From a virus, in IMG/VR virus record IMGVR_UViG_3300025669_000020, positions 1 through 64,000 of that record: a DNA stretch of 64,000 bases; one strand, given 5' to 3'. Positions 17,291 to 64,000 of the stretch are shown piece by piece. The notes beneath the pieces are model-generated. The model was given only the letters and a program-made list of their open reading frames with translations. It was not told where the DNA came from and made no database searches. The translations under genes were made by a program, and so were the position numbers. The first letter of the stretch is position 1; each line of letters starts with the position of its first letter.

Positions 17291-17513
17291 GCGCAACAGA
17301 ATCGTCGATACCATCAGGATCAAGGACAAGGATAAGCCGAAGCGGCGTGAAGGCCCCGAGGCTGTCACCATGAATCGTCGGCGTTCTGGTCCTCATCACA
17401 ACCGGGATCGGGATGTGGCTACAGGTCGTAATCGCAAGCCCAAGCACAAGAACCGCGACAGGCACATGGCCACCCGGGTAGCGGATCGCTACCTCGACAC
17501 GGACAAGGAGTAA
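17283..17513 (+). CDS. small basic protein with C-terminal RVADRYL tag
   Basis: Overlaps the peptidase stop; Arg/Lys-rich with an RKPKHK segment. Confidence 0.6.
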   Translation: MSRRNRIVDTIRIKDKDKPKRREGPEAVTMNRRRSGPHHNRDRDVATGRNRKPKHKNRDRHMATRVADRYLDTDKE

Positions 17514-17517
17514 CGAA

Positions 17518-19197
17518 ATGCCCTACACCATTCCCCAGATGGAAGCCGAGCTGGCCCAGTACCGGGACGCCAAGTTCCAGAAGGGCATCAAGATGACCGT
17601 GGAACAGGTATCCGCAGTCGTCGGCCCCGAATTCAAGGAGATGAATGAGAACCCTCCCCCCTCCGTGGTCAAGGTACGCGAGGAGATGGAAGGGAAGACC
17701 ACGAAGACTGCATATTTCACCGTCATCATCCCCCCGGTCAAGGGCAAGGACAAGCCCACTAAGTGGCATGGCACCAAGACCCTGCAACGGGGTGCCTTCG
17801 ACACAAAGAGGGAAGCCGATGCGTGGGCAGAGGAACACATCCCCGGTTCCAAATACTCCTTGAAGAAGTTCCCAGGCAAGGTCAATCCTGGCAAGACCGC
17901 TGGGCGTGGGTTCGTCAAGACCAAGAAGTCCAAGCTGCCCAACGTGAACGGCGTCTGGTCCTCTGTAGACCTGGGCTTCCACCCGGACGGCACGACCGAG
18001 ATCACCTTGCACACCCGCAAGAAGACCGACTTCTCGATGAGCACCCACATCAGCCATGACCACGGGCCCGCCGATTTCGACTCCATCATCGCGGACTTGA
18101 AGAAGGGCAAGATGCCCAAGGGCTTCAAGCACAACGAGGGTGCCAAATTCAAGCCTGGCAAGACCGGCTCCGAAGAGGAAGCACGCTTCGAGGAGGGTGT
18201 CCCTGCTGACCCCACCGAGAACATGTCGGAAGAGGAAGCCAAGAAGTGGCGTCTGGAGAACCTCCAGAACCGTGACAACTTCAAGGAATCCTCCGAGTCC
18301 GGGGATGCAGAACAGGAAGCTGAAGGCGCTGAGGACAGGGCTGAGGCTGATGAAGACAAGGCCCAGGCCGAACGTGAAGAGGCTGATGCCGCTCGCACCA
18401 AGGAGTCCGCCATGAGCACGCGCCAGCGTCTGACCTGGAAGGTCGCAGAATCGCAGGTTCCCGTAGGTGACGAGCCCAAGCCCGACGACCCCGAGATCAA
18501 GGGCTTCCAGCCTGGCCACACCACCCCAGAGGGCTTCGAGCCTGGTCACAAGACCGCTGACTCCCAGGTTCCCGTAGGGGATGAGGGTCGTGATGAGACG
18601 GACGTGACCACGGGCTACGAGCCTGGCTCCGATGACCCCGACTGTGACTGCCAGAAGAAGGAAGCAGCCCAGGCTGCTGCTGGCCTCTATGGCTACACCA
18701 AGGCTGTCCAGCGTGACTGTGAAGCCTCCGTCCGCAAGCTCCAGCGTAGGGCCTCAGCCATCGCCAGGAAGGCTTGGCAGAAGGATGAGAAGGTTGCGGC
18801 TTTCCTGACCACCCATGCCAAGCGTGGAAAGTCCCGCTCCGCTCGCATCCTCCTGACAGCCCTCAAGAACATGGGTCCCAAGGTATCCTCCGACAAGACC
18901 GTGACCAAGGAAGCTGCAGTCACCAGCTATGGCATGTACGGGTTCCCTTCCAAGACAGCACGCCTGGGCCTCGCTGCCTGTATGGACGTGAGGGACTTCG
19001 CGGGCACCGTGAGTGCGGATCTGCATCGGCGCAAGGCTTCCCTCTACGAACCCCTCACGGGATTCCTGGGACAGCACACCAAGGCTGCTCGCTGCAACTA
19101 CTCCCGCATGATTCTGGGCACCTACCCGGATGCCAGCATCCGGATCGCCTCCGCTGCCCCGAAGGGAGTGGCAGGATGGATCAGCTGGGAAGACTAG
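17518..19197 (+). CDS. modular putative virion (internal head) protein
   Basis: AAGGAG RBS; internal repeats (SQVPVGDE x2, G(F/Y)xPG x3, duplicated GxYG(Y/F) domain) separated by KTA/KEA/KVA. Confidence 0.6.
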   Translation: MPYTIPQMEAELAQYRDAKFQKGIKMTVEQVSAVVGPEFKEMNENPPPSVVKVREEMEGKTTKTAYFTVIIPPVKGKDKPTKWHGTKTLQRGAFDTKREADAWAEEHIPGSKYSLKKFPGKVNPGKTAGRGFVKTKKSKLPNVNGVWSSVDLGFHPDGTTEITLHTRKKTDFSMSTHISHDHGPADFDSIIADLKKGKMPKGFKHNEGAKFKPGKTGSEEEARFEEGVPADPTENMSEEEAKKWRLENLQNRDNFKESSESGDAEQEAEGAEDRAEADEDKAQAEREEADAARTKESAMSTRQRLTWKVAESQVPVGDEPKPDDPEIKGFQPGHTTPEGFEPGHKTADSQVPVGDEGRDETDVTTGYEPGSDDPDCDCQKKEAAQAAAGLYGYTKAVQRDCEASVRKLQRRASAIARKAWQKDEKVAAFLTTHAKRGKSRSARILLTALKNMGPKVSSDKTVTKEAAVTSYGMYGFPSKTARLGLAACMDVRDFAGTVSADLHRRKASLYEPLTGFLGQHTKAARCNYSRMILGTYPDASIRIASAAPKGVAGWISWED

Positions 19198-19394
19198 GCG
19201 TCACCCTGCTGCCCAGCCCAGGCCCACAAAGACAGCACCCGCAAGGCGGGTAGCTGCCGGTACATCCGTTCGCCCAGCTCCTCCCCGTAGATGAGGTGCA
19301 TGACGCATCTTGCCCACGCGGAGGCTGCCTGGAGTTCTTGAACCCTCCCGGTGAAGACTGCTTGCTCTTGGCTGTTGGTGTGGTGTCGGATCAT
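19194..19394 (-). CDS. hypothetical protein
   Basis: Fills the gap after 19405..20238; G-rich RBS. Confidence 0.35.
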   Translation of the reverse strand: MIRHHTNSQEQAVFTGRVQELQAASAWARCVMHLIYGEELGERMYRQLPALRVLSLWAWAGQQGDA

Positions 19395-19404
19395 CCCCTG
19401 CCCC

Positions 19405-21073: not shown

Positions 21074-21075
21074 CT

Positions 21076-23115: not shown

Positions 23116-23130
23116 CGGTTATCCTTCTAT
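23116..23130 (+). promoter_or_regulatory. class B motif CGGT-N7-CTAT
   Basis: CGGTTATCCTTCTAT, an identical 15-mer to the copy at 49402. Confidence 0.6.
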
Positions 23131-23170: not shown

Positions 23171-24100
23171 ATGCTTCACCGTGTAGCCACCCGTTGGATT
23201 CTGAAGACCGGCTCTATGGAAACGATGTTCGATGCTGTCATCAGGGCACGCATCTTGGAGCTTGTAGCAGGCGTTACGAAGAACACCTGGACAAGGAACC
23301 CCAAGTATGGGCTCCCTGCAGCTGCGAAGTATTTCCGAGAGAACTACGAGGTCGAGCTGGACGATTCCTGGCTGGAGACCAACAGCCAGAATCTCTACAA
23401 GGCCATGTGGCACAAGGCCCGTTCCATTACGGGTAACGACATCGATGCTGAAGATGTCATCCAGAATGTGATCGGAGAGATCTCCACCAAGACAGGGGCT
23501 TTCCACTATCTGGCTGGCAGGTTCGGAGATACGGTCCGGGAAACAGGGAAGGGTCTGGGAGCCTTTCGATCTCACCTCATCAATCATGTTCGCCAGAAGG
23601 CTATTGATGTGAAGAGGTTGAGCACCCGTGAAGATGCGTACCGGCAGAGGGTGGCTCCCATCAAGACCAACGTGACCCCAGGACAGGTCACCGAAGGTGT
23701 CCCCCATGATGTCACCTCTCTTCGGATGGATGACTCGGGAACCAGCCTCCACATGACCCTCACCCGCTCTCCCAACGGCAGGAAATTCTGGAACCGGCTT
23801 CTGGACAAGCTGAAGACAAAGTTCAGGCAGCCTCACTATGTGGAAATCTTCCAGAAGCGGATCGAACTGGGCAAGAGGGGCATCTCCAACAAGCAGCTCG
23901 CACAGGAGTACAACATCTCAGGAACTGCTGTAGGTGCCATCCTTCGTAAGGTCGGGGTAGCAGCCACCGAGATCGTTGAGAAGGATCCTGTACTGAGGGC
24001 CTTCGCTGACAAGCTCCTGATCGGAGAGACCCTAGGACTCGGTGGTTCCCATACCCGACTGTCCTCCGAGAGGGTGGCTACCAAGTTCCTCTCCCAGTGA
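23171..24100 (+). CDS. ECF/sigma70-like factor
   Basis: Region 2 DAEDVIQNV..FRSHLINHVRQKAIDVKR; region 4 GISNKQLAQEYNISGTAVGAIL; RVATRW and RVATKF tags at the termini. Confidence 0.7.
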   Translation: MLHRVATRWILKTGSMETMFDAVIRARILELVAGVTKNTWTRNPKYGLPAAAKYFRENYEVELDDSWLETNSQNLYKAMWHKARSITGNDIDAEDVIQNVIGEISTKTGAFHYLAGRFGDTVRETGKGLGAFRSHLINHVRQKAIDVKRLSTREDAYRQRVAPIKTNVTPGQVTEGVPHDVTSLRMDDSGTSLHMTLTRSPNGRKFWNRLLDKLKTKFRQPHYVEIFQKRIELGKRGISNKQLAQEYNISGTAVGAILRKVGVAATEIVEKDPVLRAFADKLLIGETLGLGGSHTRLSSERVATKFLSQ

Positions 24101-48305: not shown

Positions 48306-48789
48306 GGCTCGTGTAGAAGAGGGGGACCTGGGCGGGGTCTTGCAGGATGCACTCAAGGTGGGGAAGAACCACCCTGTTTTCATTCCTGCAATGGTCTATG
48401 CACGGGGGAACCGTAGAGTGGTCATTCACTTGATGGAGGGGTACGCATTTATAGCCAGTGGCCTCCCAGATGTGGAGTATTTCAAGCTGGAGCATCATTG
48501 CCCCCATGTGCGGCAAGTCCTCACTGTAGAAGACCCTCACAAGATGCGTGTCCTCAGTGTGGTTCCCAACTCCAGCATTCAGGATATGCGACGCAGCCTG
48601 CACGAGCAGATCGCGTCCGACATCAAGAGGGGGATGCACGTGAACATCACAGAGGGGCTCTACTCAGCTCTGGACGGCGAGGTTTTGGAGGTGGGCGAGC
48701 AAAACGCCCATGTCCGTATCACCCTTCGATCCTTGGATTTGATAGTGCGGATCCCAAGGGTGTTCTTGTCTCCGGAGGATCCAGAATGA
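48238..48789 (+). CDS. NusG-family antitermination factor
   Basis: NGN-like WVVL..VFIPA..LMEGYAFI and KOW GMHVNITEGLYSALDGEV. Confidence 0.8.
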   Translation: MPSNTDQRDEQTWVVLELTRTGEARVEEGDLGGVLQDALKVGKNHPVFIPAMVYARGNRRVVIHLMEGYAFIASGLPDVEYFKLEHHCPHVRQVLTVEDPHKMRVLSVVPNSSIQDMRRSLHEQIASDIKRGMHVNITEGLYSALDGEVLEVGEQNAHVRITLRSLDLIVRIPRVFLSPEDPE

Positions 48790-49400
48790 GTCGTAATTGG
48801 TGGTCAGGCCACAAAGTTATCGATCCCGCCGAAATGGAGGCACGCTTTGCCAACGAAGACGGGATGGCTTTTCTGGATGCCGTGGTCAATGAGGAGTTGT
48901 CCAAAGAAGGCCAGGAGATGCTGGATAGGGTGAAGGGTGTCCTGGACTCCCTCCCCGCACGAGAAGCAGACTTCATTGACCTCTACTACTTCAAGCGTCT
49001 CAAACAGACAGACATCGCTACCATCTTCAAGGTATCCCAACCCACTGTCTGCTACAGGCTCCAACGAGCAGCCCACCGCATCCGCTTCCTGTTGTCGCTC
49101 CCAGAGATTGAAGAGCAAGCCCTGGTCGATGCTGTGCAGGAAAACCTGGAAGACCCCCTGGACTCGAACATCATGGTGCTCATGTACCACACCACCTGCC
49201 AGTCCGAGGTGGCAAAACGACTCGGTGTCAGCCAGGGCCTGGTACGCCACCGCTTCATTCGTTCTATCGGGAGGCTCTCCAAGATCGAGGGCTTGGAGGA
49301 CTATGTGGAGCTGTTCCAAGCCATCTCCACCAACCTGAACATCCTCCGCGAAGTTCAGCGCCCCACCTGGGGTGCCCAGGTCACGCATATCCTGGGGTAG
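48786..49400 (+). CDS. protein with two tandem sigma70 region-4 HTH domains
   Basis: LPAREADFIDLYYF..LKQTDIATIFKVSQPTV and CQSEVAKRLGVSQGLV; no region 2. Confidence 0.75.
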   Translation: MSRNWWSGHKVIDPAEMEARFANEDGMAFLDAVVNEELSKEGQEMLDRVKGVLDSLPAREADFIDLYYFKRLKQTDIATIFKVSQPTVCYRLQRAAHRIRFLLSLPEIEEQALVDAVQENLEDPLDSNIMVLMYHTTCQSEVAKRLGVSQGLVRHRFIRSIGRLSKIEGLEDYVELFQAISTNLNILREVQRPTWGAQVTHILG

Positions 49401-49401: not shown

Positions 49402-49416
49402 CGGTTATCCTTCTAT
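49402..49416 (+). promoter_or_regulatory. class B motif CGGT-N7-CTAT heading structural gene block
   Basis: Immediately after the regulator stop codon and upstream of virion-type genes. Confidence 0.6.
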
Positions 49417-49446: not shown

Positions 49447-49767
49447 ATGATGTCTGAACAGAACCTAGCACCAGAGAGCAGAATCGTGATGGCCAAGGAT
49501 TTGGCCACGCGATGGTTGCAAGCCCGAACACGCCCTGAGTACCGCATGCAGGTGTACTACGGGGCGCGTGAGGTGAAGGGCATCCCCAACCTTCTGAAGA
49601 GCTTCCGCGATGGGAAGATTCGCATGGGGTCTGTGGAACCCCTGGGAGATCTCGGAATCGATGAGCACTTCGACTCGATCACCGTGTGGTCGTCCAACCG
49701 TGTAGCCCTGATGGGCCTCAAGGACTGGTTCGAGACACGGGGGTTCGAGACAACAGGGGTGTGGTAG
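49447..49767 (+). CDS. hypothetical (putative virion) protein
   Basis: GAGGA RBS; DLATRWL tag. Confidence 0.65.
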   Translation: MMSEQNLAPESRIVMAKDLATRWLQARTRPEYRMQVYYGAREVKGIPNLLKSFRDGKIRMGSVEPLGDLGIDEHFDSITVWSSNRVALMGLKDWFETRGFETTGVW

Positions 49768-50199
49768 ATGGCAGCCACCAGGCTCGGACTCGAATCCACC
49801 TACCGTTCCCCCTCCACGGGGTCGGTCTACTACACCTTCATTATCACCTCCGACGTGTCGGGGAACGTGTCGGTACGGGACATCCAAGGCCCCTATGGGC
49901 TCATTGTGGACACCCTGACCGATGTTCCCTCCTCCGTCATTGCGGACATCACAACCGCTATCAACGCAGTGGAGGCCATTTTGGCTGGCATCTCTTCCAC
50001 CAGTGGCAGCGTGACGTTCGCAGCCGAGACTTCCCAGGCAGTGGTGTTCAGCACCGCTCTGGCTGACGCCACCTACCGCGTCTACACCAATACGGCGGAG
50101 TTCGTGCCTGTGAAGATCACGAGCAAGGCTACCACTGGGTTCACCATCGAAATCGGTGTGACCTTCACCGGAACCGTCTACTACGACGTGCTCGTGTAG
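49768..50199 (+). CDS. putative virion protein, Thr/Ser/Val-rich beta domain
   Basis: C-terminal V.F.....DA.Y.V....ITSKATTGFTI module, also present at the end of the next gene. Confidence 0.65.
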   Translation: MAATRLGLESTYRSPSTGSVYYTFIITSDVSGNVSVRDIQGPYGLIVDTLTDVPSSVIADITTAINAVEAILAGISSTSGSVTFAAETSQAVVFSTALADATYRVYTNTAEFVPVKITSKATTGFTIEIGVTFTGTVYYDVLV

Positions 50200-50209
50200 A
50201 GAGGGCCTG

Positions 50210-51412
50210 ATGGCACAAACCCCATTCCAAGTAGATGCACTCCAGATCGAGCCGGGCTCTGGTGATACCCTGACAATCAGTCGGGATGCCACTGCAGGAG
50301 CGATGAAGCTCCTCGATGCGGTCCTCACCTCGGGGATCCTACTCCCCGATCTTTCGGGACTGCGGAACATCACGGGTGTTCATATCGTCGGTTCAGCTGG
50401 GACAGGAGCCAAGTACACCGCAATCCAAGACGGTGTCGACGCCGTGGCTGTTACGGCGGACGTGGATGCCCCTGAGCTGGTCCTGGTCCTCACCGGGGTC
50501 TACACCGAGAACCTGCTCATCCAGAAGGATGGGGTCGTCATCATGGGCCAGGGCCTGGTCCGGGTCACCCCCGACAACACCGCCAGTCCTACTGTGACCA
50601 TCTCGACAGCGGTCGGCACGACACCGAACTACACGATGTTGAAGAACCTCACCGTGGAGCATCCCACCGCCGGCGAGGTTTGTGTCTCTATCGCGGGGGG
50701 AGCCGCCTCCGTTGTGGGCTCCACAGGCATCTACATCGATGGCTGCAACATCGTGGCCTCAGGGGTAGGCACCTATCAGGTGGATGCAGACACCGTGAAC
50801 AACGTCTACATCCGGGGTGGCACCTGGGCAGGTTCCAGTTCCAGTGCTGTCTGTCAGGCTGCCAACTGTGCCCTCTTCTATGTGTCCAACGTGGAAGAGA
50901 CACAGAACTTCCAGGTCAGCTACGACACCGCTGCTGCCCGCCCGCTGACCACCACGTCGGCTTACCGGCTGTGGAACCTGGGGTCTGCAACAGACCTCCT
51001 CTCCAGCCTCTCCGGTGCAGGTAGCCTGACCATCAGTGGCTGCCCCTCCATGGGGAATGTGGCCCAGGCAGGGGACAGAGCCCTGACCCTCAACTACAGC
51101 CGCGTTGGAACCCTCACCCTGGACGACACTACCGCAGGAACCTTGTTGGGTTCGACACGGGGTGTGGCTGCTGGAAACGGCACCCTCCAAGAGGACTCCC
51201 TGACCAGCACCTCGGTGTTTGCGGCAGAGGGGGTGGCAGGCAAGACCATCACCTTCGCAGTGGATCAGCCTGACACGGACTACGCTGTGTTCCTGGACTG
51301 GACGGGCACAGAATCCGTGCGTGTGTCCAGCAAGACAGCTGCCAACTTCGTCATCACCACATCTGGCAACATCACCGGGTCGTTGTTCTACACCGTCAAC
51401 CGGGAGATCTGA
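50210..51412 (+). CDS. tail-fibre/spike-like protein with pectin-lyase-like beta-helix
   Basis: AKYTAIQDGVDA..VLVLTGVYTENL beta-helix cap motif; G/S/T/A-rich. Confidence 0.65.
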   Translation: MAQTPFQVDALQIEPGSGDTLTISRDATAGAMKLLDAVLTSGILLPDLSGLRNITGVHIVGSAGTGAKYTAIQDGVDAVAVTADVDAPELVLVLTGVYTENLLIQKDGVVIMGQGLVRVTPDNTASPTVTISTAVGTTPNYTMLKNLTVEHPTAGEVCVSIAGGAASVVGSTGIYIDGCNIVASGVGTYQVDADTVNNVYIRGGTWAGSSSSAVCQAANCALFYVSNVEETQNFQVSYDTAAARPLTTTSAYRLWNLGSATDLLSSLSGAGSLTISGCPSMGNVAQAGDRALTLNYSRVGTLTLDDTTAGTLLGSTRGVAAGNGTLQEDSLTSTSVFAAEGVAGKTITFAVDQPDTDYAVFLDWTGTESVRVSSKTAANFVITTSGNITGSLFYTVNREI

Positions 51413-51414
51413 TC

Positions 51415-51705
51415 ATGAGCCTTCGCAAGAACCTCATTCGCCTCGCACACACCAACCCTGAGTTGCGCCCCCAGCTGCTCCCCATTCTGAAGGGCTCCGC
51501 CTATGATGGGAACGCTGACGGCAAGCCTATCTATGACCACGATATCGATCATGGGTACGGGCAGCCTTTGGCTGGTGGCACCGACGTGATGCGTCGTCTG
51601 CAGAACCAGTACCGGAAGGAGCAGGGTCGCCCCGAGCGCCCTGCAAACCCCGAAATCCCCAAGATGGCTTCCCGTGTTGCTCTGCGGCATCTCGACAGGA
51701 AGTAG
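51415..51705 (+). CDS. small putative virion protein
   Basis: LRKNLIRLAHTNPELRPQLLPIL N-terminus; C-terminal MASRVALRHL tag. Confidence 0.65.
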   Translation: MSLRKNLIRLAHTNPELRPQLLPILKGSAYDGNADGKPIYDHDIDHGYGQPLAGGTDVMRRLQNQYRKEQGRPERPANPEIPKMASRVALRHLDRK

Positions 51706-51714
51706 GAGAACACC

Positions 51715-52296
51715 ATGTCCAACAACGATGAATTCTGGGACGGTCTGATTATGGCTAGTTCCGATGTGGGGATTGGGGATGTGCACCTCCCCAATCTCAG
51801 TGAGACCACCATGAAGGGGAAGGAGATGGGGAAGGGGTTCTTCGAATCCGTCCAGAGCCTAACTCAGGCGGGAGCCGCTAAGAACGCACTCCAGCTGCCC
51901 ATCGCAGCTGGTAGTCGTGTGCGGTTCAAGGCCAACACGGGTTCCCTGTTGACCTACGAGAACCCCCCCGAGCCGAACGCCGAGGGTGATGTGGTGACTG
52001 TGCGTTCTGCCTCTGGCAACATCACTTCCCATGACGGGTTGGTGTTTGTCCAGTGGAAGGACAGGTTCATGCCTATTCACGCGGAGCACCTGGAGAAGGT
52101 GGCCAACCAGATGCGGCAGGGTAGCCCCCACCGTGTCCGCGTCGCCTGTCTCGGGGACCTCCAGGACTTCCTGAAGGTCAGCCAGGACACCCTGGTGCAC
52201 AAGGCCACCAAGGATCTGTGGTCGCTCCGTGCAGACGGAGAAGGCTTCGTTATCGAGCGGCTCTTCGACACGGAAGGGAACGCTCTACAGGTGTGA
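51715..52296 (+). CDS. hypothetical protein (SH3-like middle)
   Basis: AGGAG RBS; LVHKATKDLW..IERLFD C-terminal module. Confidence 0.65.
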   Translation: MSNNDEFWDGLIMASSDVGIGDVHLPNLSETTMKGKEMGKGFFESVQSLTQAGAAKNALQLPIAAGSRVRFKANTGSLLTYENPPEPNAEGDVVTVRSASGNITSHDGLVFVQWKDRFMPIHAEHLEKVANQMRQGSPHRVRVACLGDLQDFLKVSQDTLVHKATKDLWSLRADGEGFVIERLFDTEGNALQV

Positions 52297-52362
52297 GACA
52301 CACGGACTGTGCGCGTCATTTATATGGCTATAGGCTGGCCTGGGTAGAACAGGGAGTCGCCC

Positions 52363-52974
52363 ATGGTTGAGAAGCCCCTTGCAGCCCGTGTTGCTTCCAG
52401 GCACCTGGAAGGACACCACAATCCGCAGACGCGGACGGCGGGTGAAGTACGCTTCATCAAGGACCGTGGTTCTGATCACAACGAGTGGGGCTGGGGAACT
52501 CCGGGCCCTTCGGAACGTGAGATCAACCATGAGTTTGTCTTCAACGCCAAGTACCTGAAGCCCCTCGCTCAGTCCCTCCGCGCTGCCCTCATGGCTCTTG
52601 GCCACACCACCAGTGCCCACACCCAGTTCGTGAAGCTCAAGAGCCGCAACGTGTCCCCTGATGGGAACCTGGGTGGCAAGGGCTACATCCAGAAGATTGC
52701 TGACATGCGCCGCCAGTTGATGAACTGCATCGAGGCGTTGTCCTCTTTCACGGATACCGTGTACGATGAGCTGGCTGCCCCTCACTGGGATCCCGCCGAA
52801 GATGTGCTCTCTCCCCGTGATCGTGATGAGGTCAAGGAAATCATCGATGATGCCGAGGAGATCAAGCTGGATCCCAAGGAATGGGCAGAGGATGAAGAGG
52901 CGGAGATGGACAGTGCCAAGGGGAACGGCGTCGGCAAAGTCGCAGCCCTCTACATGGCTCGGAGGAACGCATGA
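52363..52974 (+). CDS. putative virion protein
   Basis: GGGAG RBS; ARVASRHL and KVAALYM tags. Confidence 0.7.
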   Translation: MVEKPLAARVASRHLEGHHNPQTRTAGEVRFIKDRGSDHNEWGWGTPGPSEREINHEFVFNAKYLKPLAQSLRAALMALGHTTSAHTQFVKLKSRNVSPDGNLGGKGYIQKIADMRRQLMNCIEALSSFTDTVYDELAAPHWDPAEDVLSPRDRDEVKEIIDDAEEIKLDPKEWAEDEEAEMDSAKGNGVGKVAALYMARRNA

Positions 52975-55751
52975 GCAATGACAAGCACCTCGATGTGCTG
53001 GGCGAATCCCATCTCCCGGATGACATCTGGACCCCTACAGAGGGTGAGAACTATGGGCTCGATGGATACCCTGACATGGACTACGGTTCAGGGGTACTCC
53101 ACGGGAATCCCAACGTCTCCGAGACAGTCCCCCGTATGGACGAGGGTGTTCTTGCAGACATCGTAGACGGTGCTCCTGATGGGCAGGTGTTTGGCCCCTT
53201 GGGTGACATCGCGGATATGATGAAGCAATCCTCTCTCCCAGACCTGACTTGGCTGGAAGTAGATGAGCAGGATGCCACCAGGCTCCCCGTCAATCCCGTT
53301 GACCAGAGCATCCCCGAGCTGGAAGAGGCTTGGGGTGTAGACCGCCGTTCTGATGGTGTCCACCTGATCCCCAATGTGGATCTGGAGAAGGCAGCCTATG
53401 AAAAGGCTCTCAAGGATGGCGATGTACGCCCTGTCCGCACCAGAGCCGCACTCCTGAACATTGTGCGGAAGGCCATGCGACGCTCCGCCGCCGGCGTCCC
53501 CTTCGAGGACATCGAGGCAGAGGTTCAGGAGACCCTGGGAGACGATCTCCCCCTGGTGCAGAAGCACCTCCAGCTCATCCGTGATGGGCATGACCTCTCA
53601 GGGCGTGTCTTCATCCATGCAGACGCCTACCCGGGTTGTGCCAATGGGGACTGGACAGAGGCAGTCAAGAAGGTGGCTTCGGGCTCCCGCTATGTGGTAG
53701 CCGGTTCCTCCTGTGCCAACTGCGTTCAGAACCTCAGTGGTTCCTGCTCTGTGTTCAAGAAGAAGCTCGTAGCTTCTGTCCCCTGGGACGATGCCTTGGA
53801 GCATTACAGTCCTGAGCTGGAAGCAGCAGGCCGCAAGGTCGCTTCCGGCAACCCCAAGGCAGCCTTGAGGGCAGCCTTCGCCCAGGCCCCCGAGGGCATG
53901 GGATTCATCCAGAGGCACAAGCCTGTACACGTCACCCCCTCCGAGCGTATCTCCGCAGAGGAGGCTCACCGTGAGGTGCAGGCTGCCAAGACTGAGCGCC
54001 GGGTCTACACCCCCGCTGACAAGCAAGAAGCTCGGAAACTCCATGCTGCCCGTATCCGGGTAGCTCGCTGGGTTCAGCAGGGCCTCTTGGACAAGACGGC
54101 AGCTACCCGGATCGTGGCCCAGGCCAACCCCAAGGTCATGCTGGAGCAGGCAGTTTCCCGCATGGTGGCTTCCAACGGTTCCGCTGCGTACTCGGGCCTG
54201 GTGAATGACACCCGTGCTCCTGACATGGCGGGAGACGAGGCGTGGGAGCGTCTTGGTTCCGTGGCACCTCTCCCAGCGGTCAAGCTGTCCCGTGCTCAGG
54301 TGCACAAGCAGATCGCAAGGTGGGCTCGCACTGGACTCCTGGACAAGGGCTCTGTGCAGAAGCTGGCCCGCTCCCTGGCAGAACCCCGTGATGTCCTGCG
54401 GACAGCGGCGATCCTGGCCTCCGCAACTACCACAGGTGAATACTCGGGTGCGGTCAACAACATGCACGGCACCGAGGTCTCACAGGACCATGCGTGGAAG
54501 CTTCTCCGTGAAGCAGAGGACCATGCAGCCAAGGCAACAGCAGCCATCGTGGCTGAAGTTGAGCGCCGCGAGTTCCAGGCGTCCCGCGCTGGGAAGCACA
54601 TGGCCCGTGTGCAGGTGAAGGTGGCGAAGATCGAGGAAGCCATCAACCGTGGTGTGGTGGGAAGAAATCTCCTGAATCTCATTCAGGAGACCATCCGTCC
54701 CGACGATCACGACATGGCAATCCCTCTCCTGGATCCCATCCTTCAGCGGACTGGTGCTCTGGAGAAGGAGATCCAGACCGTCCATGACTACTCCGGTGTG
54801 GATAACAAGCGGGCATCCGAGGATGTCACCTCCGCGGATGCCTGGAAGCATTTGTTCACGACTGCCGATGTGGCTCAGCAGAAGGCAGCCAGGATTCAGG
54901 AGTCCCGTACCGCGAGGGTTTCTCTCACCATCGAACGCAAGGTCGTCCAGGTCAAGGAGGCTATCGAGCGTGGTGCAAGAGGGCAGGCCCTCCGTAAGAT
55001 CATCGCCCGCACCTTCCTGAAGGATGAGATTCCCCAGGCAGCCACTTTGCTGAACCCTCTCCTTGAGAAGACGGGGGCTCTGTCGGAGTCCTCTACTCAG
55101 GAATACCAGGGTGCCAAGTTCGAGCGGGCTGTGGGTCGTAAGGCCGAAGCTGTCCCACTCCCGAAGGAAGTGCGCGGTGTGCTTCGCTGGGCCCGGCAGA
55201 AGATGTCGGAAGGCAACGTCGGAAACCAGCTGGATGAGCTGTTGTCGATGCGGTTCTCTCCCCGTGTGCTCACAGCCGCGCAGGGAGCCCTCCAGGATGC
55301 CCGTGGGCGTCACGAAGGGCTCGCAGGCATACTCTATGTGGATGCGTCCGCCTATGCCTCAGAGAGGGGCACAAAGGGTTGTGAGCACGGTGCCGTCAAG
55401 CACCGCGCCAATACCCTGAAGGCTGTTCTGCAGATGGACAGGTGTGCTTCCTGCTCCCTGCGGAATGTAGGCTCCGATGGCACACCCCGTTGCCAGACCT
55501 ACAAGAAGGCTCTGATCTCCGAGCTTACACCAGAGGAAGCCTCGGGTCTCCAGGCGGAGAACATCCGCATGGCCAATGCCCCTGACCAGGAAGTCACAGC
55601 CTCTCTGTTCACTCCCATGGGCAACCTGTTCAACCAGGCGGAGTTCAGCTTGAGCAGCGGTGAGTATGACGACATTTCGGTCGAAGATGCTCCTGACATC
55701 AAGAAGCTGGGTGACGTGCTCTTTGGTGGTTTGCACCTGTCAGAGGACTGA
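52971..55751 (+). CDS. 926-aa protein with nested internal duplications and two Cys-rich domains
   Basis: Repeats YSG..N...AW (x3), RW..GLLDK (x2), EAI.RG..G..L..P.L..TGAL (x2), CxxC..C..KK.L (x2). Confidence 0.7.
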   Translation: MSNDKHLDVLGESHLPDDIWTPTEGENYGLDGYPDMDYGSGVLHGNPNVSETVPRMDEGVLADIVDGAPDGQVFGPLGDIADMMKQSSLPDLTWLEVDEQDATRLPVNPVDQSIPELEEAWGVDRRSDGVHLIPNVDLEKAAYEKALKDGDVRPVRTRAALLNIVRKAMRRSAAGVPFEDIEAEVQETLGDDLPLVQKHLQLIRDGHDLSGRVFIHADAYPGCANGDWTEAVKKVASGSRYVVAGSSCANCVQNLSGSCSVFKKKLVASVPWDDALEHYSPELEAAGRKVASGNPKAALRAAFAQAPEGMGFIQRHKPVHVTPSERISAEEAHREVQAAKTERRVYTPADKQEARKLHAARIRVARWVQQGLLDKTAATRIVAQANPKVMLEQAVSRMVASNGSAAYSGLVNDTRAPDMAGDEAWERLGSVAPLPAVKLSRAQVHKQIARWARTGLLDKGSVQKLARSLAEPRDVLRTAAILASATTTGEYSGAVNNMHGTEVSQDHAWKLLREAEDHAAKATAAIVAEVERREFQASRAGKHMARVQVKVAKIEEAINRGVVGRNLLNLIQETIRPDDHDMAIPLLDPILQRTGALEKEIQTVHDYSGVDNKRASEDVTSADAWKHLFTTADVAQQKAARIQESRTARVSLTIERKVVQVKEAIERGARGQALRKIIARTFLKDEIPQAATLLNPLLEKTGALSESSTQEYQGAKFERAVGRKAEAVPLPKEVRGVLRWARQKMSEGNVGNQLDELLSMRFSPRVLTAAQGALQDARGRHEGLAGILYVDASAYASERGTKGCEHGAVKHRANTLKAVLQMDRCASCSLRNVGSDGTPRCQTYKKALISELTPEEASGLQAENIRMANAPDQEVTASLFTPMGNLFNQAEFSLSSGEYDDISVEDAPDIKKLGDVLFGGLHLSED

Positions 55752-55823: not shown

Positions 55824-55838
55824 CGGTAGAATCTCTAT
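55824..55838 (+). promoter_or_regulatory. class B motif CGGT-N7-CTAT heading packaging operon
   Basis: CGGTAGAATCTCTAT; palindromes TTTCAA-N5-TTGAAA and AATTAC-GG-GTAATT just upstream. Confidence 0.55.
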
Positions 55839-57420: not shown

Positions 57421-59772
57421 ATGGCACTTTCTGATCTGGTTCTAGGCGCAGGGCGCATGAAAACCGGGGAGTCCCGTACTCCCACGGACATCATCACGTT
57501 TATCGAGGCCCCTTGGGGCCTCGATATGAAGCTGTACCCTGTGCAGAGGGTCATCCTCAAAGCCCACTACGGCATGGGTTTGGATGACAACCCTTTGGGG
57601 TTCCCTCTTGACGATCCGATCCCCGAGGATCACCCGCACTACGACCCCAAGTGGTTTGACATCAATCCCCGTGCGGCACAGAACACCATCGAGATCACGA
57701 ACCCGTTGACGATCCCTGACGGGGCAGACATCACCCTGGTAGACCACACAGGTGCTGCCATCTTTTTCAGGGAGGGTGTCCACTGGTCCCGCCAGGGGTC
57801 TGTTGCTGATGTGACAGCATCCATCATACAGACGCTGAGGGACAATGTCCCGGACACATTCACGGTAGATGATACGGATTACGGGCGTATCAAGGTGCTA
57901 AGCAAGGGGTATAGCATCGAAGGGAATGCTGCGGATATGCAGCTGACGCCTTGTGCTGGTTGGAGGGTGGGGCTCCCCGCCTTGGAGACGGATCAGGAGG
58001 GGTATGAGCAGCACCACCACCGCTTCTTTGCGGGTGAGGGCGGCTTCTACAAGTACCGCATCCCCATCTCTGACTGGCGTCGTGAGAACGCTCGTGTGTA
58101 CACGGAGGCAGGGTATCTCAAGTACCTGCATAGTGAGAATCGCTGCAACGTAGCAGAGATCATCCCGGGGCAGGAACGTCGTGAGATGGTTCTTTCCATT
58201 GGGCGTCGTTCTGGCAAGACGCTCCTGACTTCCTGCATCCTGGCCTATGAGACATACAAGCTGTTGCTCAAGGGCAACCCGCAGAAGCATTACGGCTCCA
58301 GCCAGTCCAACGTCATCCAGCTCATCAGTGTTGCTACTGACAAGGATCAGGCAGGGCTTCTCTACCAGGAGGCCGCCGGACATTTTGGAAAATGCGATTT
58401 CTTTGCAGCCTATATGGCGAACGCCACCCAGAGCTTCGCTACGTTCCAGACCCCTTTCGACATTGAACGCTACGGCTCCTACGCGGAGAACCAGAAGGCC
58501 CGCTACTCGGTCAAGGTCACCTTCAAGAGCTGTGTGGCCAAGGGGCTTCGCGGTGGTGCCAACATCCTGGTTGCCTTGGATGAGGTTGCTCACTTCACAG
58601 ACAAGGGTCAGTCCTCCGCAGAATCTGTCTACCAGGCAGTAGAGCCCTCTACCCGAACCTTCTCTCCGAAGGACCCCAACAACGCCACCCGTTCCGTGGG
58701 CCAGAACGAGGGTCGGATCATCATGATCTCGTCCCCTCTGGGCAAGCAGGGGCTCTTCTACAAGAGCTACCAGATCGGCTACACCAGTGGTCGTGCTGCC
58801 AAGAACATGCTCTGTATCCAGGCACCAACATGGGAGGTCAACCCCACGGTGCCCGCAGGGACGTTTGAGTCTTCCTACCTCAAGGATGCCCGTGTGTTCG
58901 ACACGGAGTTCGGGGCGAAGTTCACGGACAGGTCTTCAGGCTGGATCGAGGACAAGAGAGATCTCCTTGACTGTGTGACCCCATCGCTGAGACCCAAGCA
59001 GAAGGCCCGTCCTCGTGAGCCTCACTTCCTGGGACTCGATGTGGGTCTTGTAGGGGATGGTTCCGCTGTGGCTATCGGGCATGTGGATGATAATAAGAAT
59101 GTCGTCCTGGATTTCATTGAACAGATCAAGGCTGGGGAAGGGCGGTTCGAGCACTTGGAGCGGTTGGAGTTCACGGATGTTGCGGACTGGGTTTATGACC
59201 TCTCCCGGAGGTTCTACATCTCGGAGGGGATCTTTGACCAGTGGGCAGGTATTCCCATGGAGCAGGCACTGGCTGCCCGCGGTCTCAAGCAGCTGAAGTC
59301 TGTGTTTTTCACGAAGCCCAAGAGCAGTGAGATATTCCAGAACTTCAAGAACATGATGTACGACAAACGGCTTTCACTGTTCAACTACCCTCTCAAAGAG
59401 GGGGAGGAACATTGTGACTACCTCAAGGAACTGCTGACCCTCCAGGCTGAATACCAGTCCAAGTACATCACGGTGGTGGCTGCTCCCAACACTCAAGGCA
59501 TGCACGATGATATGTCCGATGCCCTTGTTCGTATGGTGTGGGTTGGTTCCCAGCACATGGGCAAGATGTTGGCGGTTGGCAATTACATCGGTGGGCAAAT
59601 GGGTGGGAAGGGTCCGAGGCGTAGTTCACTCACGGATCGGATGGCCACCCGGCAGAAAGCTCTTTTGGGTGGGAGCCATCCAGATCGTCAGGTGCGTCGT
59701 AGCAAGAAAAACATCATGGGCATGCCCGTGGGTGCGACACGGGGTGTGAACCCCAGAACACGTCGGGGATAA
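57421..59772 (+). CDS. terL: terminase large subunit
   Basis: LYPVQ adenine motif, Walker A GRRSGKT, Walker B VALDEVAH, coupling motif ISSP, nuclease GLDVGLVGDGSA, FDQW, HDDMSDA. Confidence 0.92.
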   Translation: MALSDLVLGAGRMKTGESRTPTDIITFIEAPWGLDMKLYPVQRVILKAHYGMGLDDNPLGFPLDDPIPEDHPHYDPKWFDINPRAAQNTIEITNPLTIPDGADITLVDHTGAAIFFREGVHWSRQGSVADVTASIIQTLRDNVPDTFTVDDTDYGRIKVLSKGYSIEGNAADMQLTPCAGWRVGLPALETDQEGYEQHHHRFFAGEGGFYKYRIPISDWRRENARVYTEAGYLKYLHSENRCNVAEIIPGQERREMVLSIGRRSGKTLLTSCILAYETYKLLLKGNPQKHYGSSQSNVIQLISVATDKDQAGLLYQEAAGHFGKCDFFAAYMANATQSFATFQTPFDIERYGSYAENQKARYSVKVTFKSCVAKGLRGGANILVALDEVAHFTDKGQSSAESVYQAVEPSTRTFSPKDPNNATRSVGQNEGRIIMISSPLGKQGLFYKSYQIGYTSGRAAKNMLCIQAPTWEVNPTVPAGTFESSYLKDARVFDTEFGAKFTDRSSGWIEDKRDLLDCVTPSLRPKQKARPREPHFLGLDVGLVGDGSAVAIGHVDDNKNVVLDFIEQIKAGEGRFEHLERLEFTDVADWVYDLSRRFYISEGIFDQWAGIPMEQALAARGLKQLKSVFFTKPKSSEIFQNFKNMMYDKRLSLFNYPLKEGEEHCDYLKELLTLQAEYQSKYITVVAAPNTQGMHDDMSDALVRMVWVGSQHMGKMLAVGNYIGGQMGGKGPRRSSLTDRMATRQKALLGGSHPDRQVRRSKKNIMGMPVGATRGVNPRTRRG

Positions 59773-60061: not shown

Positions 60062-60445
60062 ATGGCACGACTTCGCAAAGGCTCCTTGGCATCTCCCGCT
60101 GATAGGGAGATTCTGGGCCATGTGGCAGCAGCGGAGAGGGCCCTTCGCAAGGCTTTGGATGCTTGTGTCCTAGCTAAGAGGCAATCTCGGTCCCCAGGCA
60201 GCAATCTCCGTATGGCCCGCGTGATCAGAACACAGCGGGATCTACATCGGGTGATGGCGGCTCTGTCAAATGTGCATCGCATCGTACCCCTTCATGACAT
60301 GGGCGAGCAGGATCCGGGTGAGCTGGATCGTGATCTCATGTCCCCAGAAGAGCGTGCAGCCTTTGATGCTGTGGAAGACCAGCGAGAGGACTTGTTGGCA
60401 GCAGTAGCAGAGAAGTTGACGGCAGCCTGGGAGAGTGCTGAATGA
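60062..60445 (+). CDS. hypothetical protein
   Basis: GAGG RBS; ATGA overlap with portal. Confidence 0.6.
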   Translation: MARLRKGSLASPADREILGHVAAAERALRKALDACVLAKRQSRSPGSNLRMARVIRTQRDLHRVMAALSNVHRIVPLHDMGEQDPGELDRDLMSPEERAAFDAVEDQREDLLAAVAEKLTAAWESAE

Positions 60446-62214
60446 CCAAGAACACACTTGAGAAACCTCCGTTCCCGGAGAAGGCCCCCACTTCACAGAA
60501 GCGATTGGCCTCTACCTCCATGTCAGAACCCCAGGAAGGTCGTGTAGTGGCCAAGGTGCGCCCGCGCCCCAAGGTCAAGACAGGAAAGCCCAAGCGGCTG
60601 GACAAGGTCGCTGCAATGCGGGTGGCCTCCTGTGGTGGCGGCGGTCTTTCAACCTCTGGCTCGGAAAGTGCCTCCTTCGGCAACTTCTACAGCCCAGAGC
60701 TGTCCACGGACTTCTTGGAGCTGGCACAGTCCAAGACTGAGCAGTGGGCCTACTACCGCTTCTTCTACAACGCCGATCCCTTTGTGGGACAAGCCATCGA
60801 TCTCCATACGGAGCTGCCCCTCTCCCGTGTACGCTTGGACATCCCCGAGGCCAAGAGCCGTGAATTGGCGATGAAGTCCACCCGGTTCTGTAAGCACTGG
60901 GCGAAGGACATTCAGCTCTTGCGGAAGCTGTGGGGTGTGCTCCATGAGTATCACCTCATTGGGGTCGTCAACATCTACATCGAGGACAACAACCCGGAGA
61001 TGCCGGAAGAGGTCCGAATCGAAAGGGTGCGGGAACTCCAGGAGGACGGCACCCTGGTAGAAGAGGAGCAGGAGCTGGAGGACGCTGACGAAAGGTCCGT
61101 GGCATGGCTCAAGAAGAACTACAAGGGTTGGACAGGGTTCCGTGTCATCCCCCCAGAGCAGGTGCATGTTGAGGGGTTCCCCTCCACAGATCTGAAGCTG
61201 GTGGAGATGATCCCCGATGCCAAGACCCGCAAGCTCGTCATGGCAGCAGACAGCGGGGACGCTCGTTCCGCATCCATCGTCAACACGATGGCTCCTGAGA
61301 TCGTAGAAGCCGCACGCACAGGTCAGAATGTTCCCCTGAACACCGACCCAGATGCAGGCAGCTTCGTCCATGTCCTCGAAAACAAGAAGTGCCCCTACCA
61401 GGATGGTGGGCAGTCCATCTTGGAGCGGTGTATCCGCACCCTGGTGTTCTGGGACAAGCTCCGCCAGGCCAACACCTCCATCGCTTCCCGGCACATGACC
61501 CCTATTCGGGTTGTGTACGCAGAGGACATGGACATGGCCGACGTGGAGAACCTGCGTGACCAGGTGGACATGGCCCTGCAGGATCCCGATTTCTCCATCA
61601 TCGCCAACTTCCAGATCACCTGGGACGAGATGGGGTCGGATCAGCGTCTGCTAGACCTGTCCAGTGAATACGAGTTCGTGCGGCAACAGCTGTTCGCGGG
61701 TTTGGGAGTCACGGAAGGTCTGCTCACAGGTGAGTCCAGCTACTCCGGTGACCGCATCCATCTGGATGTGATCAACACTCGGTACATGCTGCTCCGTGAG
61801 GTCATTCAGGAGTTCGTGGAAGAGCAGCTCCTGAAGCCGATGTGCAGGCGCATGGGCTTTATCGAGGAGGATGAGGACGGCCGTGATGTCGTCATCTACC
61901 CGAAGTTCAGCTTCACACGGTTGGCTCTGCGGGACAACGCGGACACTTTCGATGCCATGCTCAACCTCTACCAGAAGGGGAGCCTGGACATTGATGCCAT
62001 CCTGGAACTGCTGAATATCGATCCGGTGGCCACGAAGGAGAAGCTGGACAGGGACAAGTTCACCCTGAACGATGCTGCCTTCAGCGAGGTGCTTCGAGGC
62101 ATCTACGGTGAGGCAGGACGTGCATTGGCGGCAGATTCCGACGTGTTGGAGATCATTGCCAAGAACCTGGGGCTGAAATATGAGAAGCCCAAGGAAGAAG
62201 GCGGAAGGTACTAG
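60442..62214 (+). CDS. portal protein
   Basis: 590 aa downstream of terL; FFYNADPFVGQAIDLHTELPLS, GQSILERC, GLGVTEGLLTGE, P.FSF..L.L portal-like pattern. Confidence 0.8.
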   Translation: MTKNTLEKPPFPEKAPTSQKRLASTSMSEPQEGRVVAKVRPRPKVKTGKPKRLDKVAAMRVASCGGGGLSTSGSESASFGNFYSPELSTDFLELAQSKTEQWAYYRFFYNADPFVGQAIDLHTELPLSRVRLDIPEAKSRELAMKSTRFCKHWAKDIQLLRKLWGVLHEYHLIGVVNIYIEDNNPEMPEEVRIERVRELQEDGTLVEEEQELEDADERSVAWLKKNYKGWTGFRVIPPEQVHVEGFPSTDLKLVEMIPDAKTRKLVMAADSGDARSASIVNTMAPEIVEAARTGQNVPLNTDPDAGSFVHVLENKKCPYQDGGQSILERCIRTLVFWDKLRQANTSIASRHMTPIRVVYAEDMDMADVENLRDQVDMALQDPDFSIIANFQITWDEMGSDQRLLDLSSEYEFVRQQLFAGLGVTEGLLTGESSYSGDRIHLDVINTRYMLLREVIQEFVEEQLLKPMCRRMGFIEEDEDGRDVVIYPKFSFTRLALRDNADTFDAMLNLYQKGSLDIDAILELLNIDPVATKEKLDRDKFTLNDAAFSEVLRGIYGEAGRALAADSDVLEIIAKNLGLKYEKPKEEGGRY

Positions 62215-62223
62215 GAGTAGACC

Positions 62224-62409
62224 ATGACCGACAACCGTGAGACATTTGATGCCCTGTACGACCTGTACCAGAAAGGAGCACTGGACAGCGATCAAGTCCT
62301 GCAGGCGCTCGACATCGACCCCGAAGCCGTCAGGGGAAAGATGGTTCGGGGTGGGGATATTGATGCTCTGGCAGCGATAGACAAGTACATCGCGTCGTTG
62401 GAGAGCTAA
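62224..62409 (+). CDS. 61-aa paralog of portal C-terminal segment
   Basis: DNRETFDALYDLYQKGALDSDQVLQALDIDP versus portal DNADTFDAMLNLYQKGSLDIDAILELLNIDP; AGGAG RBS. Confidence 0.75.
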   Translation: MTDNRETFDALYDLYQKGALDSDQVLQALDIDPEAVRGKMVRGGDIDALAAIDKYIASLES

Positions 62410-62774
62410 GCCGCTCCCCCGTAGCTGCCGCTCATCAACCGTGCATGGTACTCCTGTGTGTACAGGTGGTAGGCTGCTTCATAGCCTGCGTTTTTGATCA
62501 TCCGGAGCCCTTCCTCATCGGCTTCCCGTTCGTTGTTGGTACGGGCAATGATGTGGCCTGTCTCGTGGGCCAAGATCACCAACAGGTGTTCCTCTGTGAA
62601 CCAGTCCTCTGACAGAATACGGCCGTCCACAACGATGATCGGGGTTTTGATATCCTCACCAAACAAGGCGCAGGCATAGGTGTGGTCAAAGCGGCTGGGC
62701 TCATCCCCTGGATCAATGACCAGGACAGGGATGCTCTTATCGAAGGGGCTCCACGGGGGGCATGTAATTGACAC
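62406..62774 (-). CDS. small zincin-like metallopeptidase (HExxH)
   Basis: ILAHETGH and EREAD; AAGGAGG RBS. Confidence 0.7.
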   Translation of the reverse strand: MSITCPPWSPFDKSIPVLVIDPGDEPSRFDHTYACALFGEDIKTPIIVVDGRILSEDWFTEEHLLVILAHETGHIIARTNNEREADEEGLRMIKNAGYEAAYHLYTQEYHARLMSGSYGGAA

Positions 62775-62871
62775 AGGGCCTCCTTTTTTACTAAGCGTGC
62801 CTCTACCTAATTGACTCAGGTATCAACCCATTCCCTGAGTTTCCGCCCAAAGAGCAGGGGCCACCGTGGGT

Positions 62872-62886
62872 CGGTATTTCCTCTAT
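62872..62886 (+). promoter_or_regulatory. class B motif CGGT-N7-CTAT
   Basis: CGGTATTTCCTCTAT upstream of the 62914 ATG. Confidence 0.6.
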
Positions 62887-62913
62887 GGCTATGGGGGGTC
62901 AGAGGTTTAGAAG

Positions 62914-64000
62914 ATGCCAAAGCCACTGCCAGCACAGACGGGTTCTCTAAAAACCGCTGCCGATGTAGGGACAGACACGGCGGAGATTTATGCAATCTCC
63001 CCGGAAATGCTCTACAGGGTTCTCCAACGCAAGACGTGGGAAGAGACTGCCCGTGGGGTGTGGGGTGACAGCGATCACGGGAACATGCCCGGCCAGTGGG
63101 AGAAGATGCAGAGGATCATCCGGGAACATGGCGGGGCAGTGTTCCAGACAGGCAGGGATGGCTATTTCGATGTGAAGGTGCATGGGGGGGTTTCCGAGGG
63201 AGGGGCTATGGCTCCCTATGGGACTCTCAGTACGGAACGTGTGGCCTCGATGCACAGGGAGGCACTACGGGCCCAGGAGATGCTCAAGTGGGTGGTGCAG
63301 CCCCTCTCCTTCCTCTCCAAGCACCACAAGGACTTCATCAACGGTCCTGTAGACGACGTGATGGATCAGGCGTTCCGCGAGATCGCCCCCCATGTGGTCA
63401 AGGCTGTGGGGGAGGCAGAGATCGATGCCGACGTGGATGAATTCCACGATGGGGCCATTCGGGGGAAGTGGGACTATGATCGTGAGCTTCTGTCAGACCC
63501 CCCTCGCAGAGAGACCGAGGACTTCATCGAGGGGTACACTTGGGGGTTCCAGCACCCTGACATGGTGGGCACCAGGGAGCTGCCTGCTCGGGTCAAGAAG
63601 CAGGTGGTCGAGGATGCCATCCAAGAATTCCGCCACAAGGTGACGGAGAAGGTTGTCCTGAAGGCACTCCGCTCTGTCTGGGGCAGAGTCAATCCCCTGG
63701 AGACATTCAGGACCATCATCCGCATGACCAAGAAGCACGGGTGGAAGCTCGGCCTGTTCATCGCCAGTGTGGAGATCCTGGAAACCTTCGTGATGCCCGC
63801 CGTGCTCATTCACATCACGGGTAATGCAGCTCTGGCGGTTACGGGTCAACTCCCCTTGAGCGAGATCCTGTACGCCATCATTTTCCCCATCATGTTCCGA
63901 GGGAAGGCCGTGGACACGTTCACACCTGACGGCCACCTGGACTGGTATGAAGCCTTGTATGGAATGGTGCGGGTGGCAGAGCGGACACCGCAGTCAAACA
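62914..64000 (+). CDS. putative virion/membrane protein (3'-truncated, not in ORF track)
   Basis: Open from ATG 62914 to the window end: MPKPLPAQTGSLKTAADV...STERVASMH...hydrophobic GWKLGLFIASVEILETFVMPAVLI. Confidence 0.7.
   Translation, partial: MPKPLPAQTGSLKTAADVGTDTAEIYAISPEMLYRVLQRKTWEETARGVWGDSDHGNMPGQWEKMQRIIREHGGAVFQTGRDGYFDVKVHGGVSEGGAMAPYGTLSTERVASMHREALRAQEMLKWVVQPLSFLSKHHKDFINGPVDDVMDQAFREIAPHVVKAVGEAEIDADVDEFHDGAIRGKWDYDRELLSDPPRRETEDFIEGYTWGFQHPDMVGTRELPARVKKQVVEDAIQEFRHKVTEKVVLKALRSVWGRVNPLETFRTIIRMTKKHGWKLGLFIASVEILETFVMPAVLIHITGNAALAVTGQLPLSEILYAIIFPIMFRGKAVDTFTPDGHLDWYEALYGMVRVAERTPQSN

Follow-up and report, generated by a model that had tools for sequence, protein, structure and literature searches.

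A short peptide shared by otherwise unrelated late proteins of a phage clade, a candidate capsid-targeting tag

The subject of this study is a short peptide, close to RVAxRYL, that recurs in a 64,000-nucleotide stretch of viral DNA (IMG/VR record IMGVR_UViG_3300025669_000020, positions 1 to 64,000; hereafter the window). The window is the first part of a single contig of 105,613 bp with a guanine plus cytosine (GC) content of about 59%, and positions past its end are given as genome positions. The proteins that carry the peptide have no detectable common domains, yet share this one short tag. A sequence-only reading of the window had listed eight copies and had proposed that they load diverse cargo into the phage head; all eight were recovered at the same coordinates and in the same frames. 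The genes concerned were the following, where scores in bits refer to the weight matrix described further on.

17283-17513, + strand: very basic protein of 76 amino acids (aa), isoelectric point about 11; C-terminal tag RVADRYL at 17475-17495, followed by 5 residues; 16.5 bits.
23171-24100, + strand: 309-aa probable divergent sigma-70-family factor; N-terminal tag RVATRWI at 23180-23200 and C-terminal tag RVATKFL at 24071-24091, the latter followed by 2 residues.
49450-49767, + strand: 105-aa protein; degenerate N-terminal tag DLATRWL at 49498-49518; 14.6 bits.
51415-51705, + strand: 96-aa protein; C-terminal tag RVALRHL at 51673-51693, followed by 3 residues; 22.7 bits.
52363-52974, + strand: 203-aa conserved helical protein; N-terminal tag RVASRHL at 52387-52407 and degenerate C-terminal tag KVAALYM at 52936-52956.
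62914-64000, + strand: 1011-aa multidomain protein that starts in the window and ends at genome position 65949; weak internal tag RVASMHR at 63238-63258.

The copies had been described as lying nearly all at protein termini. This held for most of them, but RVASMHR (63232) is internal, at residue 109 of the 1011-aa protein. MATRVADRYL (17466) is not a protein start and belongs to the last 15 residues of the 76-aa open reading frame (ORF) at 17283-17513. A partial RVADYL near 30086, in the ORF at 29819, does not count as a copy; it has no Arg at the fifth position and lies outside the gene call. DLATRWL (49498) and KVAALYM (52936) are degenerate copies whose orthologues have clearer ones at the same places, in the case of the 49450 gene RLARRWV, KLASRWL and AIAQRWL. 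Past the window, N-terminal copies were found in a nucleotidyltransferase gene at 65953, in a protein with GNAT, Ntn-hydrolase and GNAT domains (true start 71999) and in a 1467-aa topoisomerase IB protein at 74528. Copies at internal junctions were found at 69636, 71999 and 74528, and C-terminal copies at 94568 and 94942. Two tags on one protein were present in the products of the 23171 and 52363 genes and in the N-terminal fragment of the 72053 gene product.

The tagged set was constant among the relatives and comprised a probable sigma factor, a small basic protein, the conserved protein of 200 aa and enzyme polyproteins encoded next to the head genes. The polyproteins are situated between the portal and protease genes, and their domains were DUF5661 with 2H phosphoesterase (further on in the 62914 protein), GNAT with Ntn hydrolase and GNAT, and topoisomerase IB (in the 1467-aa protein). 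The tagged proteins showed no MuF domain, and Pfam and PHROGs gave no match for the small ones.

Occurrence was counted in a gene set that was our own heuristic codon-bias call, consisting of 123 genes and 32,675 aa. In this proteome the pattern RVAxR[YWHF][LIM] occurred 5 times against 0.01 per shuffle, and the broader pattern [RK]V[AG]x[RKLM][YWHF][LIMVA] 13 times against 0.37 in shuffles. Nine of the 13 broad matches lay within 20 aa of a terminus, in zones that make up 15% of the residues. Relatives were obtained from IMG/VR by a search with the portal protein, which gave 58 loci with a portal identity of 50-69% and a GC content of 32-67%. The portal gene and the terminase gene of the window are:

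57457-59772, + strand: large terminase (TerL), untagged.
60442-62214, + strand: Mu-type portal, untagged; the query for finding relatives.

Past the window, the genome encodes the head-maturation protease at 80401-82008, a scaffold-like protein at 82008-83186 and a major capsid protein of the HK97 type at 84087-84962, and the capsid protein is 67-92% identical through the clade. A weight matrix trained on the relatives only, used with a threshold of 11 bits, found 15 sites in this genome against 0.33 in shuffles. In the relatives it found 126 strong sites on the portal-coding strand and 5 on the opposite strand. Chance or composition was rejected as an explanation by shuffles, by reversed sequences and by this opposite-strand control. 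A repeat at the level of DNA was rejected as well: since the copies use different codons, it is the protein sequence that is conserved. The extended consensus was approximately S-A-x-[RK]-V-A-x-R-[YWFH]-[LMA]-x-[KA], and relatives across the above GC range carry the same peptide.

The best public matches of the portal were a 485-kb unannotated uncultured phage (63% identity), Tunturiibacter phage Tunturi_5 (38%) and Bacillus phage G (26%). As zero tag matches were found in the first 32 kb of Tunturi_5 and one weak match in the first 34 kb of phage G, the tag seems limited to the closer clade. Gp13 of phage G (L064:11937-12203), a small gene directly upstream of the portal gene, begins with the tag-like KTAARYA (14.6 bits), which may be due to chance or be a distant trace of the tag.

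Among the orthologues in the relatives, the tag was absent from TerL (0 of 42), the portal (0 of 43), the capsid protein (0 of 15), the protease (0 of 20), the decoration-like protein (0 of 17) and the 926-aa protein of the 52971 gene (0 of 27). It was present in all three members of the 49450 family, in 11 of the 19 members of the 52363 family (at more than 13 bits) and in 11 of 21 in the 79820 family, and most polyprotein families carried it. Scaffold-like proteins were without it, save for three low-GC scaffolds that carry the full tag.

Altogether 103 distinct tags were collected. The C-terminal ones numbered 25, with 2-8 residues following the motif; about 25 were N-terminal, only a few residues in from the start; and 53 were internal, mostly in ORFs of 600-3091 aa. 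In the 79820 family the tag is inserted where an N-terminal domain meets a zinc-ribbon domain. The frame stops directly after it in several relatives, whose polyproteins of 977-1347 aa therefore end with the tag, and the low-GC subclade is without a tag at this domain joint. In the locus L052 the 2H phosphoesterase, a polyprotein domain in the present genome, is a free protein of 197 aa whose C-terminus bears a strong tag and whose N-terminus is tag-like. The internal tag of the 71999 protein, RVASRFI, is separated by the four residues SKHA from the Cys at which the Ntn-hydrolase (AAT family) domain begins (genome 72707-72742; L001:10707-10742). Self-cleavage is typical of the Ntn-hydrolase fold, and here it would put the tag at the new C-terminus of the upstream GNAT fragment.

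Alignment of the 52363 family showed a conserved core with variable extensions, in which the tag was N-terminal, C-terminal or at both ends and never in the core. The family also has a conserved acidic, Trp-containing stretch. This stretch could pair with the basic amphipathic tag, and the existence of three doubly tagged proteins (those of the 23171 and 52363 genes and the 72053 fragment) would likewise suit a model in which tags adhere to one another or to the acidic region of the 52363 protein, the cargo condenses into an internal body and this body is enclosed whole. Some 52363 orthologues, however, have one tag or none, and we consider this course of events very improbable. It is a variant of loading into the head rather than an alternative destination. 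A search of the PDB with the 52363 sequence gave nothing useful, and Foldseek found no match for its model. The gene of the conserved 926-aa protein, at 52971-55751 in the window, shows translational coupling to the 52363 gene with its two tags. The protein had no family or fold match, the ESM Atlas gave nothing, and it may be located inside the head and undergo processing, or may be what the tag binds.

Models of the 52363 and 23171 proteins were calculated with AlphaFold2. In both, the tags were placed in short isolated helices outside the well-predicted cores, with low-confidence linkers between, and in the 52363 protein these helices were at residues 6-15 and 192-202. One helical face of the tag holds V2, A3, the aromatic residue 6 and L7; R1 and R5 adjoin this face, and the free position 4 is on the other side. 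Averaged over the tags, the hydrophobic moment peaks at 100 degrees, the helical angle. From the models and this periodicity the tag is predicted to be an isolated amphipathic helix.

A second short motif, [KR]-x-A-[SG], was found 18 times in the head-core proteins of this genome where 3.9 were expected, with no enrichment in early proteins. There were 6 sites in the scaffold-like protein, 5 in the protease (two of them near its N-terminus) and 4 in the product of the 79121 gene. Among the relatives the motif was enriched 6.9-fold in scaffold-like proteins, 4.4-fold in the protease and 4.4-fold in the 52971 orthologues, and was depleted in the capsid protein, the portal and the decoration-like protein. 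Since the orthologues are not independent, these ratios serve as an indication only. The scaffold-like proteins keep a site about 20 residues ahead of a strongly conserved C-terminal peptide. In the 52363 family each tag is separated from the core by such sites, and in the window the cut-like RTAG at 52432-52443 lies between the N-terminal tag and the conserved core. The pattern suggests that [KR]-x-A-[SG] is a protease cut motif that partly overlaps the tag.

The overlap also admits a reading in which the whole tag is an extended site of the head-maturation protease, cut as R-V-A|S with R-Y-L on the P' side, and has no addressing role, its substrates reaching the head otherwise. RVAS and RVAG fit the cut motif, which is enriched in scaffold-like and protease proteins. 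Protease orthologues retain W-x-K-V-R-V-A-S near the N-terminus, one scaffold has SRVAS at the conserved site, and the sole [KR]xA[SG] sites in the polyproteins 62914, 69636 and 72053 of this genome are the RVAS or RVAG of tags or tag-like copies. However, position 4 of the tag is Ser in only 37 of the 103 cases and otherwise free, including D, L, R and Q, which leaves the two motifs overlapping in about one third; the conserved positions show helical and not extended periodicity; and the likely substrates, the scaffold-like proteins and the protease, are rich in [KR]xA[SG] but, with the exception of the three low-GC scaffolds, do not carry the full tag. Because of these three points we regard a pure protease site as unlikely. 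It also speaks against such a site that the tag switches ends among orthologues, and that cutting 6-12 residues from a C-terminus would be pointless unless the peptide acts first.

The sequence-only reading had further placed all tagged genes downstream of a CGGT-N7-CTAT motif. This was confirmed for all matches above 11 bits but one weak match in the DNA-methylase gene at 39994 (11.5 bits). The motif occurred 6 times in the window against 0.65 expected and 10 times in the genome. All ten sites were on the + strand, and nine were intergenic, 27-57 nucleotides ahead of a start codon. The sites, and the gene that ends just ahead of one of them, are:

9112, 16561, 23116, 49402, 55824 and 62872 in the window, and 74487, 94513, 97403 and 98293 in the genome, + strand: all CGGT-N7-CTAT sites.
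16561-16575, + strand: site ahead of the operon containing the 17283 gene.
23116-23130, + strand: site 41 nucleotides ahead of the 23171 gene.
49402-49416, + strand: site ahead of the operon 49450-55751, with three tagged genes.
55824-55838, + strand: site ahead of the terminase-portal operon, which ties the tagged operons to the head genes.
62872-62886, + strand: site ahead of the cargo polyprotein block.
48786-49400, + strand: sigma factor (region 4), untagged; directly upstream of the promoter-like site at 49402.

A site thus precedes every tagged operon, the terminase-portal operon and the operon reaching the capsid gene, and CGGT-N7-CTAT is a strong candidate for a phage-specific promoter. 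A block of minus-strand genes at 4324-13909 in the window was without the late-type promoter motif and without tags.

The same distribution bears on another possible destination of the tagged proteins, in which the tag would dock late or injected effectors on a hub outside the capsid, such as the host RNA polymerase, the ribosome, the sliding clamp or a cytoplasmic complex of the phage. The occurrence of the tag at either end of a protein is like that of hub-binding motifs (clamp-binding motifs too sit at either terminus), a probable sigma factor and a topoisomerase IB are among the tagged proteins, and the phage encodes a likely clamp and clamp-loader subunits. Replication genes had nevertheless been said to lack the tag, and this was found to be the case: no replication or NAD-metabolism protein of this genome rose above the lone weak methylase match, and the matrix scan found no tag on delta, tau/gamma, the primase, the helicase, RecA or the SbcCD-like proteins. 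The tags are concentrated in the block of head genes and in operons of the late type, and they are kept in relatives of such different GC content, hence in very different hosts, that a receptor encoded by the phage fits better. With replication proteins untagged and the peptide conserved over this GC range, a hub outside the capsid appears improbable. The more specific reading as a clamp-binding motif was rejected, there being no tag on replication proteins; to our knowledge the tag does not resemble the clamp-binding consensus.

The doubly tagged 23171 protein was examined further. A word-indexed search for homologues returned only the protein itself, whereas a full HMMER search gave 50 remote homologues, and a tag of more than 10 bits was present in 21 of these 51 sequences (query included), mostly near the N- or C-terminus. 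The AlphaFold2 model had a mean predicted local distance difference test score (pLDDT) of 83 and consisted of two helical domains. Nearly all top rows of the Foldseek result were sigma factors, with a best E of 0.01. The C-terminal domain superposed on sigma-4 with Z of 7.3-7.9 and a root-mean-square deviation of 1.9-3.4 over 63-73 residues, which is short of the safe range for helical proteins. Pfam gave sub-threshold matches only, to Sigma70_r2 (E 0.026) and to helix-turn-helix families, BLASTP against the annotated sigma factor of Tunturi_5 showed no real similarity, and a PDB sequence search returned nothing useful. Judged by the model, the 23171 protein is probably a divergent sigma-70-family factor.

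Other observations were made on tagged genes. The gene at 65953-68596 of the genome (L001:3953-6596), which opens with the tag RVAQMHL, encodes a nucleotidyltransferase of the CCA/poly(A) type and contains an intein that bears a LAGLIDADG domain. The reading frame of the N-terminal part of the gene differs from that of the rest, with a frameshift near L001:4350-4400 that is either real or an assembly error. A second common peptide, LIRLA(H/Y)xxPExRxxLLP(I/L)L, starts the 51415 protein (window 51433-51489) and the 92376 protein (genome 92403) and was also found at L044:3637 and L044:6273. It resembles L[IV]RLAKLISL, the conserved C-terminal helix of the protease orthologues in the relatives; the protease of this genome has FIRLGKILSH, 17 residues before its end. 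The LIRLA-type peptide may be a second class of docking peptide.

Regarding the genome as a whole, the last ORF of the contig (genome 105486-105613) runs in frame into the first ORF of the window (1-1597), and because of this reading across the contig ends the genome is probably complete and circularly permuted. The first ORF of the window encodes a vWA protein with a long Gly-Glu repeat. The recognisable genes included a RecD-like helicase, RecA, an SbcCD-like nuclease pair, the clamp-loader subunits tau/gamma and delta, a primase and a ribonucleotide reductase.

We propose that the tag is an address label like the capsid-targeting sequence of phage T4, in part with a built-in cut site, an analysis that we hold to be on balance probable. 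The motif would be a portable docking helix of 10-12 residues on proteins destined for the assembling head. The cargo would consist of enzyme polyproteins of the polyvalent type, the conserved 200-aa helical protein, small basic proteins and the probable sigma factor. In a first step the tagged genes would be expressed along with the head genes from the CGGT-N7-CTAT promoters. The hydrophobic face of the helix (V2, A3, aromatic 6 and L7), flanked by R1 and R5, would then bind one phage-encoded component of the prohead, for which the scaffold or core, the inner capsid surface and the portal are candidates. After assembly the head protease would free or trim the cargo at [KR]-x-A-[SG] sites, which in some proteins would lie between the tag and the body and in about one third of the tags would be embedded as R-V-A-S/G.

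The earlier proposal of a portable tag that loads cargo into the head was supported in part, namely by the conservation of the peptide, its restriction to a cargo-like subset of proteins, the promoter-marked operons shared with head genes, the position at either end and the predicted helix. The loading itself, as well as the encapsidation, the receptor, the cleavage and a later ejection into the host, is what we infer from these. A number of points weigh against the address label. The probable sigma factor and several of the enzymes could equally well work in the cytoplasm. In the AlphaFold2 models the tag helices had a low pLDDT of 39-58. Two thirds of the tags have no Ser or Gly at position 4, and a fixed [KR]TA[SG] site beside every tag was rejected; the association came mostly from the 52363 family, and a fixed spacing was unsupported. 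The training instances of the matrix were picked with a pattern derived from this genome, and the orthologues are non-independent, so that the counts overstate the number of independent events. The relatives were covered within 10 kb of the portal. Finally, no cultured member of the clade was found, and megablast against isolated phages gave no match.

A bolder extension, which we put forward tentatively and consider possible but doubtful, is that a two-part code, made up of the helix at either end and the [KR]-x-A-[SG] cut site, sets throughout the clade which proteins are loaded and injected and can be read from sequence. In the present phage these would include a virion sigma factor that redirects the host RNA polymerase as the next infection begins.

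If the proposal is true, the set of injected proteins could be predicted directly from metagenomic sequence, and this set would include RNA-repair enzymes, acetyltransferases, a topoisomerase and the probable sigma factor. At present, finding injected proteins requires virion proteomics of cultured phages. The capsid-targeting principle of T4 would then hold in an unrelated lineage too, where the signal functions at both termini as well as within polyproteins, and there would be a concrete pair of peptide and receptor to look for in head assembly.

A literature search for the motif strings found no paper, and searches on capsid targeting and cargo peptides gave only work on T4, P22 and encapsulins. 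In T4 a short conserved peptide is the sole feature shared by the internal proteins IPI-III and Alt, and entry into the prohead core was proposed as its role (PMC3012670). The present tag is like it in being common to otherwise diverse late proteins that are made with the head genes, and in having a cut motif, here a candidate one, beside or inside the signal (PMC3012670). The analogy drawn in the sequence-only reading gained this possible cut motif, but it did not extend to position or sequence: the T4 signal is N-terminal only, whereas the tag is N-terminal, C-terminal or at domain joints, including those inside polyproteins, and swaps ends, and the two sequences differ. The clade is also unrelated to T4, with a Mu-type portal and head genes like those of phage G, and the function of the T4 signal was proven by experiment whereas that of the tag is inferred. 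The site of the T4 prohead protease ends in Glu, compared with the candidate [KR]-x-A-[SG] here.

The polyvalent proteins described by Iyer et al. in 2017 were predicted to be packaged in the capsid, injected and proteolytically processed (PMC5512222). The tagged polyproteins resemble them in being large late proteins, encoded next to the portal and head genes, in which unrelated enzyme domains are combined in one chain (PMC5512222). A difference is that a search by terms in the same paper found no shared linker or tag motif (PMC5512222). The tag is, moreover, also present on small single-domain proteins elsewhere in the genome.

Also comparable are the C-terminal tails of scaffolds or proteases of the herpesvirus and HK97 type and the coat-binding helix of the P22 scaffold. 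In these, a protein is attached to the inner shell through a short helix at its terminus, amphipathic or basic in character, and cleavage nearby releases it; the cleavage sites of herpesviruses are Ala|Ser. There the docking tail belongs to the scaffold or the protease only, whereas in this clade the RVAxRYL tag is on cargo, and the scaffold-like and protease proteins of the clade end in LSKLWxxAPDVxKFF and L[IV]RLAKLISL. In encapsulins a terminal peptide sends cargo into an HK97-fold shell, although with another consensus, usually for one enzyme, and with no DNA and no protease. Compared by description only, they share with the proposed system a terminal peptide, diverse cargo and an HK97-fold shell.

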